A stretch of 64,000 bases of DNA from Longimicrobiales bacterium (GTDB lineage: Bacteria > Gemmatimonadota > Gemmatimonadetes > Longimicrobiales > Gaopeijiaceae). Where the stretch lies: positions 1,280,001 to 1,344,000 of the forward strand of contig CBDFMQ010000002.1 of assembly GCA_965249725.1 (NCBI GenBank). The letters are read 5' to 3'. The first letter of the stretch is position 1. Each line of letters opens with the position of its first letter. Made by a program: the position numbers. Of the stretch, positions 44,901-50,900 are shown in pieces.

Positions 44901-47900
44901 GGGAGCCGGTGCACGGCCTCCCTGATACGGGCCGCCTCGGACCGGAGGGTGACCTCTCGAGATGGATCGTCTCCCGGTGCCGCAATGGCTGATACGTCCT
45001 CGAGCGGGCGCTCCTTGCGCCGACCGGCCTTGCGTAGATACCCGCGGGCCTCGTTGCCCGCGATGGCCAACAGCCAGGTCCGGAAAGCGGCGTCCCCACG
45101 AAACCTGCCGATGGCCTTGAACGCCTTGATGAAGCAGTCCTGGCTGGCATCCGCTGCAAGATCCTCTTCTCCCAGGATGGCCACGCAGGTCCGAAAGACC
45201 GCGCCGTGATGCCGGTCTACGAGCAAGTCCATCGCGCGGCTGTCTCCAGCCTTTGCACGCTGAACCAACTCCTCGTCGGATGGTGGCTCGGTGCGTAAGT
45301 CCTCGGCCATCATGAACTCAGATGCTCGTCGTCCCCGAAGCGTTAAGTCCGTCGAGCGACAAAGCGGAGGGGGTTCGGACAACGCTGGCGTCGAAAGTCG
45401 TGACGCACCATGCACCCTCTATTCTACGGGCTGTCCGTCGAGCTGGCTCACACGCGTCCGAAGGTGCTTGGAAGGCTTGAACACAGGAACGCTCCGGGAA
45501 GGGACTTCCACACCCTCGCCTGTCCTGGGGTTGCGAGCCATGCGACTCTTCCGCTTGCGAACCTTGAAGGTTCCGAACCCACGGATCTCGATGTTCTCCC
45601 CGTTGGCGAGCGCCCTCTTCACGGCGTTGAGAAACCCATCGACGACCAAGGCACAGTCCTTCTTGGTGATCCCGGGACCGATGGCTTCCGCCACCTGTTC
45701 GACGAGGTCCGCCTTGGTCATTCATTCCTCCGCGATACGATATGTGTCCGAGCTATGAGCAGGGGAGCCACGGTAACGATCTCGAACCTGGAACGTCAAG
45801 TGCCCCTTGGACCTACGGCCGCCGTGACTCCATCAGCGCGATGAACTGATCGAAGAGGTACCGGCTGTCGTGGGGCCCCGGCGCCGCCTCTGGATGGTAC
45901 TGGACGGCGAAGACCGGCCGCTCCCGATGGGCCACGCCCTCTACGGTGCCGTCGTAAAGATTGACGTGTGTGAGTCGCAGATCCGGCGCCCCGGGAATCT
46001 CGTCGCCGTCGCCGAGGGCCACGGCAAATCCATGGTTCTGAGAGGTGATCTCCACGGTATCGGTGTCGAGATTGCGTACCGGGTGGTTCCCCCCGTGATG
46101 TCCGAAGGGGAGCTTGTAGGTCTTGGCACCGAACGCCTGAGAGATGAGCTGGTGGCCGAGGCAGATCCCGAACACGGGGACATCGTTCCCGGACAGCTCG
46201 AGGATCGCGGCCTCTGCCCGCTCGACGGCAGCGGGGTCACCGGGTCCGTTGGATACGAACATCCCGTCGGGACGTTCGGCCAGAATGTCCTCCAACGAGG
46301 TCTCGGCGGGAATCACCGTGACGCGGCAACCTCCCTCAGACAGAATCTTCGGCGAGTTTGCCTTGACGCCGAAGTCGTAGGCCAACACATGGAAGCGTTC
46401 CTCCCCGACCGCCTCCACCACATAGGGCTCGTCCGTGGAGACACCACAGGCGAGGTCGAGACCCTCCATACGGGGGTGCGCGAGCACGCTTTCGAGCAGC
46501 GTCGCCTCGTCCGTCTCGGCGGGCGCGATGGCTCCTCGCATGGCTCCCTCCGACCGGATGTGTCGGGTGAGCGCACGGGTGTCTATCTCCGCGATCCCCA
46601 CCACGTCGTTGGCCGTGAGGTAGTCCTCCAGCGCCCCCGTCGCCCGCCAGGACGAGTGTTGCGGTGGCAACTCACGCACCACGAAGCCGGTGACCTTCGG
46701 ACCTTCTGACTCCCGGTCCTCGTCGTTCACCCCGTAGTTGCCGATCAACGGATACGTCATGACGACGTGCTGACCGGAATAAGACGGATCCGTGAGGATC
46801 TCCTGATATCCGGTCATCGAGGTGTTGAAGACCACCTCCCCCAGAGAGGGTCCTGAAGCGCCGAAGCCGAGGCCGTCGAAACGCCGTCCATCTTCGAGTA
46901 GAAGGTACGCGGGTTCGCGTGGACCGGTGCTCGCCACCAGGCAGATTCCTAGTCTTGGGTGGTGCCGCCAGAAGCCTCCGACGGCCGGCGGAATCTAGAG
47001 CGGGACGGAGGCGAGTCAAGCACTGGTGTCACCCGTTCCGCCCCTCCTCTCCTCACCCTACCTTTCTCCCGACCCGCCGGGGTTCCCGTAAGCGAAGTTC
47101 CTACAAGAGAAGAAGACGAGTTGAAATGACCGACGCGCCCGAGATCTCCATTTACGCCGACGAGTCGTGCCTCGGCAACCAGTTCCAGCACCGTGCCAAT
47201 CCGGGAGGTGCCGGGGGGCTGGTAGAGTACTGGTCGGGAGGCGAGTGGGTGCGTCGCGACTACTGGGTCTCCGAAGCGGACACGACGAACAACCGCATGG
47301 CCCTCAGGAGCGCCATCGAGGCCCTGACCTTGATGCGAAAGCGCCCGTGCAACGTCCGTTTCATATCCGACAGCCAGTATCTGGTCAAAGGAATGACGGA
47401 GTGGCTCAGGGGGTGGAAGGCCCGGGGTTGGAAGCGAAAGGGGGGCGAGATCGGCAACTTGGAACTCTGGCAGGAGCTCGATCGCATCGCCTCGAAGCAC
47501 GACGTGACCTGGAGTTGGGTCCGCGGACACGACGGTCATGTCCAGAACGAATACGCCAACCACCTCGCCACCCGAGCGGCCGCGGAGCGGACGGCCTCCG
47601 GAGGATTGGTGGAGAGCGAGTACCAGGTCTGGCTGGAGGGGCAGCGCGACAAGGGCCGCTATCTCGACTACTTCGAGCACGCCCCGCCCGACTGATCGCT
47701 CCCACGCTCAGACAAACATCTGGGGCAAAAAAAAGAAGCCCTCGGTGCGGCAAGCCGCCCCGAGGGCCTCTAATTCGTTGGTAGAAGCTTCGTCTCGTTT
47801 GGAGACCCGCCCATCTTCCAGATCGCCTTGCGGCTCACTTTCAGTCGGGCAGCTAACTCAGCTTCCCTTCTCCCGTCGTCGCGCGGTCAGCAACTTCGGG

Positions 47901-50900
47901 TCCTCCGAGCTCCGGAGGGTTCAGCAGAGACCAACGACTCCTCTGCCGGCTCACCGAGGTCCAACCCCCAGTTCGCTTCCACCGCTACGGCGTCCCGTCC
48001 GATGAAACACGTTTCTCGATCCGCATGAAGGGATGACCAACGCCATCGATTCAGCGTACCACATCGGAAACGCACGACCAGTATGGGCGGGCCGAGCCCA
48101 CGCGTCAAGCTTCTCGGCCCATCTCATTCCAGAAACTTGCATTATCCCCTAACTCATTGTCATATCAAGGTTTAAGGAACGTCTAGAGACGTCGGTATTC
48201 TCTCCCGAATCGAACGTAAACAGATTGATCTTCTCGGCATGTGTGAGGAACCACGGGCCAGATCGGTTGGCTGAATTCGAAAAAATGGCGGAGCCTGCCT
48301 AGGACTTCCAAGACCTTCAAAGAGCCTCGATGGAGGGCTCATTTGTTGGCCCGCCAACACGAATTCGCCGCCCAAAGGCGCTTGCGAAGACATCGCGAAC
48401 GACAGCGGCGACTTCGCCAACCCGAATCGGACGGCCGGCCTCTTGCGAAAGCGAGGTGACCGAACGGTCGGCGATGCCGCACGGCACGATGGTCTCGTAG
48501 TAGGAGAGGTCGCTGTCGACGTTGAGTGCGAAGCCGTGAGAGGTGATCCACCCGGAGGACACGCGGACGCCGATGGCGGCAACCTTGCGGTCCTCGACCC
48601 AAACGCCCGTCAGCCCGGGCACGGTCTCTCCCTGAACTCCGAAGCGAGCCATGGCGGTGATGAGCATGGTCTCCAGATCTCGCAGGTAGCGGAGCAGGTC
48701 TCGGCGGTCGGGCTTGAGATCGAGGATCGGGTAGCCCACGAGCTGGCCCGGCCCATGGTACGTGACGTCCCCTCCCCTTCCCGCCTCGTAGAGCTCGAGG
48801 TCGAGCTCCTCCCTACGAGTGGCGTCGGCCAAAACGTGTTCGGGATGGGATCCTGTTCCCAGGGTGATCACGTGGGGGTGCTCCAGAAGGAGCAGTTGGT
48901 CGGGCACCTCGCCGGCGCGGCGGCGGGCCACCAAATCGGTTTGGAGTGCCAGGGCCTCTCCGTACGGGACGAGCCCGAGATCCCGTACCTCGAGTACCTC
49001 AAGTTCCTTGAGCTCTGGCGCGTCACCCGGGGACACTAGGCGTCCTCTGGGAAGTCCTCCAGCAGGGCCTTCAGTTCAGAGAGGAACCTCGCTGCGTCTG
49101 CGCCATCCACAATTCGGTGATCGTACCCCAGAGAGAAGAGCGATCGCTTCCGGATGGCGATGACGTCCGTGCCGGTGACCGGATCCTCCACCACCACGGT
49201 TCGCTTCTCGATCGCACCGGTGCCGAGGATCGCTGCGGTCCCCTTGGGAATAACGGGCATCCCCACCAGCGTACCGAGTACCCCGGGGTTCGTGATGGAG
49301 AATGTGGCTCCCTGAATCTCGGACGGGTTGAGCTGCCGACCCCGAGCCCGCTCTGCCAGGTCGATGATCTTCTTGCCGATTCCGACCAGGCTCAGATCAT
49401 CCGTGTCGTGGATGACCGGAACGATGAGGCCGGGATCGAGATCCACGGCCATCCCGATGTTCACGCTTCCACGTTGGATGATGTTGTTCCCGGACACGGT
49501 GCCGTTCACATAAGGGAAGCTCCGCAACAGACGCGAGCACGCCCAGGCCACGAAGGCCGTGTAGCTGACCCGAGCGCCCTGCTCCGCCCACTTCGCCTTG
49601 TTCGCGGCACGAATGCGGTCCACTCGTGAAAAGTCGATCTCGATGAACGAGTGCACGTGCGGAGCCACCCGCTTGGCCATGACCATGTGCTCCGCCGTGA
49701 GCCGACGGATCTTGTCCATGGGCTCGACCTGGTCGCCTTCGCGGACCGGGAACTCGGGGTGCTGTACCTCGCCGTAGAAGGCGGTCCAAAGATCGGACGG
49801 GGCCACCGAGGCGGCCGGATGCACGGGGGCAGCCGGCTTTGCCGGAGCGGCTGCCGGCGCCGCCACCGGGGCGGGAGCCGCAGGCTGTGCCGGCGATCCC
49901 CCACCTTCGATGTAGTCGAGGATGTCCTGCTTCGTGACCCTACCGGCGTGGCCGGTGCCCGCCACGTCGCCGATGGCGATTCCGTGCTCCTCGGCGATTC
50001 GCCGAACCACCGGAGTGGACTTCGTCCGCAGGCGCTCCTCGGCCGACTGCTCGCCCGCATCCTCGGCCCCACCGTGGGCCGGTGTGGTCGCGGCGGGCGC
50101 AGCAGCGGGTGCGCCGGTCGGAGCGGCCGGCTCTGCCGGGGTCTCGACGACTGGGGGCGCCTCCGGACCCGAATCGGCGACCTCGACCGGTGTGGACGCG
50201 GCGGACACGGTGGGCACGGTGGGTGCACCGCCCTCGGTGTCGATGAACGCCACGACCGTGCCCACCTCAACGGTCTCGCCCTCCTGGACCTTGACCTCCA
50301 CGAGGGTTCCCGACTGGGGTGAGGGAATCTCGGCGTCCACCTTGTCGGTCGAAATCTCCAGGATCGGCTCGTCTCGCTCGACCGTGTCGCCGACACTCTT
50401 CAGCCACTTCGATACCGTGCCTTCGGCGATGGACTCGCCCATCTGCGGCATGGGAACCTCGATGCGGGCCACTCTATCTCTCCAGATCTATTGTTGCTGA
50501 AATCAGAATCGGCGACCCCAAAGTACCCGGGGGATCGATGGGCGGTCCCACCGCCACCGAAAGAACTAGTAGTTCACCAGATATCGTGCTGCCGTCACGA
50601 TGTCTTCGACCTGCGGCAGGAAGTAATCCTCCAATACGCCGGAGTACGGCACGGGTGAATCGATGGAAGTCACCCGGAGCATCGGCGCGTCCAACCACTC
50701 GAAAGCACTCTCGCTCACACGCATGGCGATCTCACCGGCAATGCCCCCGGTCCGGGTGTCTTCGTGCACCACCAGCAGCCGTCCGGTCTTCTTCACGCTC
50801 TCGATGATGGCCTCGTCATCCAACGGGAGGAGCGTACGAAGGTCCAAGATCTCGACTCCCATTCCGCTCTCACGTTGGAGTTCCTCTGCCGCCTCCGTAC

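Follow-up and report, generated by a model that had tools for sequence, protein, structure and literature searches.

What is encoded in the 621-nt gap between the convergent genes rnhA and lplA of a Longimicrobiales bacterium (source genome G000)? The window, i.e. the whole 64,000-nt stretch of DNA that was analysed and in which all coordinates below are counted, contains the RNase H gene rnhA, which stops at 47695 on the plus strand, and the LplA/LipB-family gene lplA, which stops at 48317 on the minus strand; these ends bear out the arrangement described in a first-pass annotation. The same annotation read the gap as holding a folded non-coding RNA that is transcribed from a promoter of its own and ends at its own terminator. 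The data presented here support that reading, and we consider it highly probable that the gap holds a genuine, independent gene encoding a non-coding RNA of ~350 nt whose class has no described relative.

A conserved transcription unit on the minus strand

BLASTN matched the gap in 25 of 61 home-family genomes, the source genome included, in agreement with the earlier claim that the sequence is kept in relatives; the stretch conserved within the family covers approximately 48117..47723. Synteny is kept as well: of the 25 loci, tblastn recovered lplA at 23 and rnhA at 19, with a distance of 611–794 nt between the two genes in loci retaining both flanks. Our best estimate for the limits of the RNA falls a little inside those first proposed, 47714..48126 (Table 1).

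The minus-strand promoter and the intrinsic terminator, both claimed earlier, were found again. CTTG occupies the –35 column in 24/24 aligned home-family gaps, the pattern TTGnnn-17/18-nAnnnT-5..7-GCG/GCA fits 21 of these 24, and homologues from other families have a TTGAC-17-TAtcaT box immediately upstream. At the opposite end, the terminator hairpin with its U8 run has a folding energy of –32.5 kcal/mol (z –4.7), and 10 of 12 pairs of its helix (helix 15) carry double changes in the alignment of 23 sequences; an internal mismatch in the stem let it escape a simple terminator scan. The locus thus shows what is expected of an independent sigma-70-type unit: conserved –35 and –10 elements spaced 17 ± 1 nt apart, a constant offset from them to the first conserved base, and a 3′ intrinsic terminator. 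The conserved TTGAC-17-TAnnnT promoter and the terminator suggest that transcription by the housekeeping-sigma form of RNA polymerase initiates at ~48073 and terminates at ~47726.

Table 1. Features of the RNA gene (window coordinates)
Feature	Position	Strand	Remarks
RNA gene	47726..48073	–	348 nt; 5′ end inferred from promoter, 3′ end from terminator; alignments A1, A4
–35 hexamer TTGACG	48103..48108	–	Promoter scan
–10 hexamer CATACT	48080..48085	–	17 nt past –35, 6 nt ahead of conserved GCG start
P1 domain	48009..48073	–	Closing helix P1 (48073..48064 with 48019..48009), inner helix P1b, hairpin P1c
PK-C 5′ strand GUGG	48059..48062	–	P1 internal loop; pairs with P6 loop
Hairpin P1c	48047..48032	–	6 bp and GNNG loop
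P2 hairpin	47978..48006	–	Near-invariant GACG loop
P3 hairpin	47949..47976	–	Helix 6; loop GUUGG 47965..47961 is PK-B 5′ strand
P4 hairpin	47923..47947	–	Loop CGUUGGU 47936..47930 is PK-A 5′ strand
P5 hairpin	47901..47919	–	Helices 10, 11; also in MFE fold
P6 hairpin	47872..47900	–	Loop CCGC 47886..47883 is PK-C 3′ strand
P7, variable hairpin	47808..47849	–	Alignment A1 columns 269–317, helix 14
PK-B 3′ strand CCAAA	47798..47802	–	Downstream of P7; CCAAG in most relatives
PK-A 3′ strand ACCAACG	47776..47782	–	Just ahead of terminator; partner is P4 loop
Intrinsic terminator	47726..47771	–	Hairpin 47771..47734, then U8 47733..47726

The RNA is transcribed in the environment

The absence of expression data in the first-pass annotation is now largely made good by four metatranscriptomes from four studies, each with contigs on 47736..48062 only. 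Run X4 gave 578 contigs, of which 61 show a likeness of 99% or more, and its summed word depth reaches 6.6e5; run X15 gave 82 contigs, and its summed word depth reaches 2.9e4; these are assembled contigs rather than raw reads and do not provide true 5′ and 3′ ends, strand or level. Judged by contig depth, the RNA ranks with the most abundant transcripts in some sediment metatranscriptomes. None of the contigs in the four sets fell on lplA, rnhA or 48086..48316, although at 88% likeness the flanks of relatives would not align anyway.

These results bear on the doubt, voiced earlier, that the RNA is a long 3′UTR of lplA, and on the related possibility of a small RNA processed out of such a UTR; in neither case would it be a gene in its own right. 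It does lie directly downstream of lplA on the same strand in many loci of Gemmatimonadales and in some of Longimicrobiales. However, lplA and 48086..48316 stay empty despite the 61 near-identical contigs of run X4, the –35/–10 elements are conserved at a fixed spacing from the 5′ GCG, homologues from other families without a nearby lplA still carry the promoter box, and a hairpin with a T run immediately follows the lplA stop. We therefore regard a 3′UTR origin as very unlikely.

Conservation is not explained by a peptide

The region could also be a decayed or small protein-coding gene, whose peptide would account for the conservation. Its minus strand, which is that of the RNA, holds ORFs of 63 and 73 aa, so the former statement that there is no open frame was too strong, and DNA conservation makes similar peptide strings recur in relatives. 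However, none of the ORFs keeps both frame and length across the 24 home-family gaps. Many of the indels in the alignment measure 1–2 nt, including some inside conserved blocks, as the earlier remark that indels are not in threes implied; substitutions in helices are compensatory, and a Pfam search with these ORFs gave no significant match, the best being one sub-threshold match with E 0.016. The chance that the region is a protein-coding gene, decayed or small, is on this evidence negligible.

A chain of hairpins joined by three long-range pairings

A structured RNA, first proposed from RNAalifold on 12 sequences, was upheld with 23. Over 93 pairs, 87.6% of cells are paired versus 35–46% in slid controls, double changes occur in 65 of the 93 pairs versus 20–31, and 0 of 500 shuffles matched the observed value on any measure; in reading these figures it should be kept in mind that helices were partly picked by eye on MAFFT alignments and that fitting alignment A4 to the model biases it toward the proposed structure. 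Compensatory changes beyond controls, the hallmark of a structured RNA, were thus found for 48073..47726. The single-sequence MFE fold (–157.5 kcal/mol, z –3.9) recovers P1–P6.

According to the model, the transcript folds as a row of hairpins, P1–P7, within a chain of about nine. In the P1 domain, helix 1 has 94.6% of cells paired and double changes in 5/8 pairs and helix 4 is 100% paired; P2 (helix 5) has 96.4% and 9/11, all 7 pairs of P4 (helix 8) are doubly changed, and the inner helix of P6 (helices 12, 13) is 98.3% paired. Tandem G.A/A.G pairs of P3 in the home family are replaced by Watson–Crick pairs in other families. The variable hairpin P7 carries an insertion in the source genome and its nearest relatives.

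Three loop pairings are predicted to join the chain: PK-A, between the P4 loop and the strand just before the terminator, PK-B, between the P3 loop and a strand past P7, and PK-C, between the P1 and P6 loops. PK-A (helix 9) is 96.9% paired with 4/7 pairs doubly changed; a complement of at least 6 nt is present in 84/89 RNAs versus 483/1780 shuffles, with at least 6 variants that co-vary, also between families. PK-B (helix 7) is 95.7% paired, its loop and partner co-vary across families, and a Watson–Crick complement of at least 6 nt occurs in 66/89 RNAs versus 172/1780 shuffles. PK-C (helix 2; 97.8% paired, 2/4 pairs doubly changed) has cross-family variants and lies weakly above shuffles across families (mean 5.0 vs 4.2 nt), making it the least well supported of the three. 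Together, these pairings are modelled to draw P1–P7 into one compact body.

Comparison with known RNAs

A search of 47000..49000 against Rfam 15 returned nothing but a look-alike of 22.7 bits, placed on the hairpin of the terminator, and among 20 homologous loci searched at E up to 1 there were 0 with a match where the RNA lies; the reported absence from Rfam 15 therefore holds for the locus and for 20 homologues. A diverged RNase P RNA, tmRNA or SRP RNA was rejected, as the source genome has normal copies elsewhere (261.6, 177.2 and 39.7 bits, respectively). The new RNA resembles tmRNA (RF00023; ~350 nt) in its length and in having several pseudoknots formed by hairpin loops and downstream strands, but has neither the tRNA-like pairing of ends nor a tag reading frame. 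A cis-acting riboswitch or leader was likewise rejected: the next gene, rnhA, is convergent in the source genome and in all of the syntenic loci where it was found (19 of 25), and the terminator is strong.

Other close parallels are orphan structured RNAs restricted to certain lineages, such as the raiA motif RNA, OLE, and the phylum-named Acido-Lenti-1 and Bacteroidales-1. Shared with these are discovery by comparative genomics, strong co-variation, pseudoknots, an own promoter and terminator, and confinement to one phylum. The new RNA differs in matching no Rfam 15 family, which sets it apart as a separate class, and in its demonstrated abundance among environmental transcripts.

Distribution across Gemmatimonadota

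Two covariance models were used, R1 with 152 positions and R2 restricted to the core. R1 found the RNA in 85/151 home-family genomes and, within the same order, in the sister families f2 (2/50 genomes) and f3 (23/50; two of these matches, G217 and G270, come from unpublished genomes), and R2 found it in 10/31 genomes of f5, another family of the class, and in 1/71 of f4; the E-values of the models are approximate, and strict filters applied whenever more than 40 genomes were searched. Carriers in three genome samples numbered 85/151, 42/151 and 22/151. In a global pattern scan, R2 confirmed 23 of 80 fetched loci, 21 of them titled Gemmatimonadota and 2 without a taxon. The RNA is thus present in at least 5 GTDB families and at least 2 orders of Gemmatimonadota and is not, as had been proposed, family-specific; the 102-nt model that had suggested so was too narrow.

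There is usually one copy per genome. Outside the home family the RNA often has other gene neighbours and sometimes 2–3 copies, and the neighbourhood is not conserved beyond the home order. No copy was found in 5/5 complete home-family genomes checked, and lplA abuts rnhA in the four of these where rnhA was found. The RNA has been lost from some genomes.

Relation to 6S RNA

6S RNA is ~185 nt long and rod-like, with a stem closing its 5′ and 3′ ends and a large central bubble; it binds the RNA polymerase holoenzyme and templates product RNAs. In mycobacteria, Ms1 substitutes for it. Like 6S and Ms1, the new RNA is stand-alone, highly abundant and stable, is flanked by a housekeeping-type promoter and a terminator, and has paralogous copies in some genomes. 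Its lineage, moreover, is without a detectable canonical 6S: RF00013 matched nowhere in the whole source genome, nor in 47000..49000 at E up to 10, and passed the cut-off (46.4 bits) in 0/151 genomes of the home order. The single weak 6S match (G151) lies in an unpublished genome.

The new RNA might be a strongly diverged true 6S homologue, given the missing canonical 6S in the source genome and order, its high abundance and the housekeeping-type promoters of both. Against this, RF00013 is silent at the locus even at E up to 10; at 348 nt the RNA is about twice as long as 6S, and its hairpin chain with three loop pairings is not rod-shaped and lacks both a central bubble and a stem closing the two ends. 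No sequence is shared between it and the canonical 6S that occurs in the phylum, and the genomic site differs. Such a homology is extremely unlikely, and we conclude that the new RNA is not homologous to 6S.

Possible function

Our best guess is that the RNA is a putative trans-acting, protein-binding regulatory RNA. Action in trans is suggested by the neighbourhood not being kept outside the home order and by the convergent orientation of the next gene in the source genome; the presence of 2–3 copies in some genomes and the absence from all five complete genomes point to a regulator rather than an essential enzyme. The stable, structured transcript would bind a protein partner and regulate it.

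The most likely single proposal, though one less likely than not, is narrower: the RNA may serve as a global regulator in the manner of 6S or Ms1, in a lineage from which canonical 6S seems to be missing. It is motivated by the lack of RF00013 in the source genome and its order, by the detection of RF00013 in 10/19 genomes of families f10–f12 (other classes), which are without the new RNA, and by the empty ancestral site (pheT-zapA-6S-rny) in the source genome. It is weakened by family f4, where 6S was not found (0/42) and the new RNA hardly at all (1/71), and by the home-family genomes without the RNA; the structure has no 6S-like closing stem or central bubble.

Alternatively, the RNA may be catalytic, as a ribozyme, or may sense a ligand, as an orphan sensor RNA; its triple-pseudoknot fold would then form an active site or pocket and not serve protein binding. 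Known ribozymes and large riboswitch aptamers are of comparable complexity in size and long-range pairing, and the RNA, very abundant and stable in nature, has a few unpaired near-invariant nucleotides (the P2 GACG loop and GAGG in the P4 loop) besides its three co-varying long-range pairings. However, such positions are few once the pairings are accounted for, the RNA is multi-copy in some genomes and lost from others, Rfam ribozymes and riboswitches gave no match, and in the home family no same-strand gene follows the terminator that a cis riboswitch could control. We consider this explanation improbable, and favour the trans-acting regulatory RNA.

Significance

Gemmatimonadota are widespread in soil and sediment but have few members in culture, and knowledge of how RNA regulates genes in this phylum is close to nil. 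The RNA described here, shared by several of its families and without an Rfam 15 relative, has a tertiary architecture that rivals ribozymes and large riboswitches in elaborateness. Its very high depth in environmental RNA libraries suggests that it probably explains reads currently unassigned in sediment metatranscriptomes, and R1 and R2 are ready for annotating it. It is possible, and we put it forward tentatively, that this large triple-pseudoknotted RNA, ranking with the most abundant transcripts in sediment Gemmatimonadota, would prove to be either a new ribozyme or a global regulator that evolved independently as a functional 6S stand-in and binds a core machine such as RNA polymerase, in a class that would have lost canonical 6S. 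The home order should include carriers in culture, and in a lineage without detectable 6S the long-standing question of what replaces the missing 6S becomes directly testable.

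A conserved non-coding RNA gene between rnhA and lplA

The convergent genes rnhA and lplA enclose the 621-nt gap described in the first-pass annotation, and the gene ends listed in the table below bear it out; in the window, an E2 acyltransferase gene lies behind lplA, and carA beyond rnhA. BLASTN with the gap returned matches in 25 of 61 home-family genomes, including that of the Longimicrobiales bacterium studied here (G000), and the part conserved in this family spans approximately 48117..47723 of the window. tblastn on the 25 loci located lplA in 23 and rnhA in 19 of them. 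Where both flanks are kept, the gap measures 611–794 nt; lplA shares the strand of the RNA, and rnhA runs towards it. After alignment with MAFFT, the –35 column reads CTTG in 24 of 24 gaps, and a pattern of TTGnnn, 17–18 nt, nAnnnT, 5–7 nt and GCG/GCA fits 21 of the 24. From the conservation of the gap and the aligned promoter pattern, the ends of the predicted RNA are placed at about 48073 (5′) and 47726 (3′), giving a length of 348 nt.

Features of the rnhA–lplA region and long-range pairings of the predicted RNA (window coordinates)
Feature	Position	Strand	Remarks
RNase H gene rnhA	ends 47695	+	Pfam RNase_H
Lipoyl ligase/transferase gene lplA	ends 48317	-	Pfam LplA-B_cat
Sigma-70-type promoter	48108..48080	-	TTGACG-17-CATACT; within the rnhA/lplA gap
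Terminator	47771..47726	-	hairpin then eight U; -32.5 kcal/mol, z -4.7; far end of the gap
Hairpin over last lplA codons	48360..48344	-	perfect palindrome TTGTTGTCTAGACAACAA in many relatives
Second hairpin	48340..48322	-	T run after it, at 48288..48273
CAATCTGTTTAC box	48227..48216	-	strongly conserved; after a co-varying hairpin
GTTA..ATAAT box	48155..48141	-	promoter scan also reads a second promoter, TTGATA-16-GATAAT
PK-A	47936..47930 with 47782..47776	-	P4 loop with downstream strand
PK-B	47965..47961 with 47802..47798	-	P3 loop with downstream strand
PK-C	48062..48059 with 47886..47883	-	upstream strand with P6 loop

The RNA strand of the window contains ORFs of 63 and 73 aa. Neither has a Pfam match above noise, no ORF is common in frame or length among the relatives, and the aligned gaps contain indels of 1–2 bases inside conserved blocks. 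A search of 47000..49000 against Rfam 15 with E-values up to 10 gave only a 22.7-bit look-alike of the terminator hairpin, and none of 20 homologous loci had an Rfam match at the RNA site (E up to 1). A known housekeeping RNA in disguise was also considered and rejected, as RNase P RNA, tmRNA and SRP RNA sit elsewhere in G000. At the level of the result listings, full-text searches on RNAs of Gemmatimonadetes, Gemmatimonadota and Gemmatimonas returned no description of such an RNA; the RNAs used for comparison include 6S, Ms1, raiA, OLE and the phylum-named motifs. We conclude that the feature is real and that, as had been proposed, it forms an RNA class that Rfam 15 does not contain.

Further conserved pieces are found between lplA and the RNA promoter, on the minus strand at 48086..48360; they could represent a terminator of lplA together with sites through which regulators act on the RNA promoter. 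On the other side, the longest rnhA frame (258 aa, 46919..47695, plus strand) opens with a GTG at 46919 and overlaps the start of the divergent carA. Neither relatives nor the Pfam RNase_H domain align before about residue 70, and the true rnhA start therefore probably lies later.

A compact fold with three long-range pairings

With 23 full-length sequences as input, RNAalifold predicted 64 pairs, and 45 of these carry double changes. A refined model, obtained by a scan of all column pairs and by inspection, consists of P1 with the inner helices P1b and P1c, P2 with a near-invariant GACG loop, P3, P4, P5, P6, a variable P7 and the terminator, together with the pairings PK-A, PK-B and PK-C. On the alignment of home-family sequences (A1) it comprises 93 pairs. 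Standard pairs occupy 87.6% of cells, compared with 35–46% when the 3′ partners are slid by 1–3 columns, and both-side changes occur at 65 pairs, compared with 20–31 in the slid controls; in this test the helices had partly been chosen on the same alignments. None of 500 shuffles reached the observed values, a type of test that related sequences inflate. Folded on its own, the G000 sequence again gives P1–P6 and the terminator at its minimum free energy (–157.5 kcal/mol, z –3.9).

The long-range pairings were also followed across families. Ninety-four matches (91 distinct) were aligned to R2, a covariance model of the core helices P2–P6, and for the 89 with enough flank each loop's longest Watson–Crick complement in the flank of the same RNA was compared with 20 shuffles of that flank. 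A complement of at least 6 nt was found for PK-A in 84 of 89 sequences (483 of 1780 shuffles) and for PK-B in 66 of 89 (172 of 1780 shuffles). Matched variants include CGCUGG/CCAGCG, CACUGGC/GCCAGUG, CGUUGGU/ACCAACG, UGCCGGC/GCCGGCA and UGUCGGC/GCCGACA for PK-A, and CUUGGA/UCCAAG, GUUCGG/CCGAAC, UUCGAC/GUCGAA and CAGGAG/CUCCUG for PK-B. For PK-C the difference from shuffles is smaller (mean 5.0 vs 4.2 nt), with matched variants such as GACCGC/GCGGUC, GACCGU/ACGGUC and GGUCGC/GCGACC.

Transcripts in metatranscriptomes

Fifteen runs on record as RNA, all of them metatranscriptomes, contain roughly one in ten of the words sampled from 47600..48400. Four of these, each from a different study, were compared by contig; their sources are a salt marsh, a sediment, a marine sediment and an unspecified metagenome. 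In all four, contigs are found only between 47736 and approximately 48062, inside the predicted RNA. The genes rnhA and lplA and the upstream gap 48086..48316 have none, an absence that is uninformative for relatives less than 88% alike. Run X4 has 578 contigs, 61 of which are at least 99% alike, with a summed word depth of up to 6.6e5, and run X15 has 82 contigs with up to 2.9e4; these depths are sums over many related organisms, and assembled contigs are not a read-out of ends, strand or true level. Near-identical contigs without cover of the flanks, together with the depth, speak for a discrete and very abundant transcript, and against both a 3′UTR and DNA carried over into the libraries. 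We read the RNA as expressed at a high level in nature.

Distribution, copies and losses

R1, a covariance model of the 5′ 152 positions with 46 pairs, detects the RNA in 85 of 151 home-family genomes, with a single match in all but three of them. In an order-level sample it matched 42 of 151 genomes: 16 of 50 in the home family (f1) and 2 of 50 and 23 of 50 in the sister families f2 and f3, respectively; the f3 matches include the unpublished genomes G217 and G270. Sister-family copies are without the P1b/P1c insert and keep P2–P6, a TTGAC-17-TAtcaT box of their own and the terminator. Their lplA and rnhA neighbours are kept in only 2 of 12 fetched loci.

R2 (136 positions, built from 44 sequences of three families) matched 22 of 151 genomes in a phylum-level sample. 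By family, the counts are 9 of 16 in f1, 1 of 1 in f3, 10 of 31 in f5, another family of the class (up to 99 bits), and 1 of 71 in the further family f4, while f2 and the remaining families f6–f12 gave 0 of 31. A degenerate three-block pattern scanned over one genome per GTDB species occurred in at least 120 stretches, and 80 loci were fetched. Among the matches listed, R2 confirms 23 of the 80 (58–123 bits), of which 21 are titled Gemmatimonadota, Gemmatimonadales, Gemmatimonadaceae or Longimicrobiales and two 'uncultured bacterium'. The remaining fetched loci in this list, nearly all from other phyla, have no R2 score at the pattern site; about 55 of them, from GC-rich genomes of other phyla, were set aside as chance matches. 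Among the genomes searched and the matches listed, the RNA was not found outside Gemmatimonadota. The RNA class is therefore distributed over several families of the phylum, in at least two of its orders, and reaches well beyond what was first thought: the label 'family-specific' was wrong, given the matches in f2, f3, f5 and f4.

Some genomes carry two or three copies; in G175 three lie within 2.5 kb, two of them identical. At this locus (L073, G175:C2:1337500-1344500) the three RNA genes are on one strand, each with its own promoter box, and a DUF5715 gene lies between copies. Because two copies do not differ at any base of the RNA or of some 70 nt upstream of it, we read them as a recent duplication; the genes around the tandem copies are uninformative. 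Outside the home order the neighbourhood is variable, with no recurrent neighbour gene except an M28-PDZ peptidase in four loci. In six f5 loci (L110, L111, L113–L116) a palindromic box of the type TTCAGGGAATTCCC stands about 60–90 nt upstream of the RNA, ahead of a TAnnnT-like element and in place of a clear TTGAC box, which suggests activator control in f5. Three loci of a home-family genus (g53; L122–L124) have weak R2 matches of 38–45 bits in another neighbourhood; at one of them, a sodium:solute symporter lies upstream and rplU lies downstream. They have an unusual purine-rich stretch before the match, are without the GACG loop of P2, and may be a diverged subtype.

Five complete home-family genomes have no R1 match, and unfiltered R2 scored at most 11 bits on any of their syntenic loci, where a hidden copy was sought. 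The distance between lplA and rnhA is approximately 0–100 nt in four of these loci; rnhA was not found in the fifth (L262). A diverged copy in f4 was likewise rejected: the single f4 RNA, as a BLASTN query against 70 other genomes, yielded 4 short matches, none of which scored with the unfiltered model. In 5 of 5 f4 genomes checked, lplA has no adjoining rnhA and no long gap. Thus, the gene was lost, or never gained, in parts of the class, and it is not universally essential.

Relation to 6S RNA and proposed mode of action

The 6S model RF00013 finds nothing in G000. Among 151 genomes of the order no match exceeds the cut-off, the sole one being a sub-threshold 34 bits in the unpublished genome G151, and f1, f3, f4 and f5 of the phylum sample give 0 of 73. 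In families f10–f12, which belong to other classes, RF00013 matches 10 of 19 genomes; for the new RNA, these families gave no match in the phylum sample. The f11/f12 6S gene lies between pheT (with zapA) and rny, with neither lplA nor rnhA nearby, so that a common site with the new RNA was rejected. At this ancestral 6S site the order in G000 is pheT, a zapB-like gene, zapA, 122 nt and rny, and the site has no Rfam match. Within the locus (L250, G000:C3:1231500-1236500), the 122-nt spacer contains a promoter-like box and a small hairpin with a T run before rny. With the 6S sequence of the phylum the new RNA shares only chance matches of 10–16 nt. We do not consider it a 6S homologue, because there is no model score and no common sequence, and length and fold differ. 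The complementarity of the two distributions is imperfect, as both RNAs are missing from f4 and some f1 genomes, and a 6S/Ms1-like niche is therefore put forward only as a guess: the most likely single one, and a tentative one.

The conserved promoter and terminator, the compact fold with three co-varying pairings, the presence in several families, the abundance, the occasional paralogues and the losses are supported by the observations above. The RNA would act in trans, as neither fixed neighbours nor a downstream gene accompany it, and would work as a stable structured particle. Candidate contact sites are the GACG loop, the GAGG loop and the purine-rich single strand after P6, which is conserved (GAGAAGGGAAG in G000). 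A ribozyme or an orphan ligand sensor is a serious rival, albeit a rather improbable one. Because both paralogues and losses occur, a regulator or protein sponge fits better than an essential enzyme.
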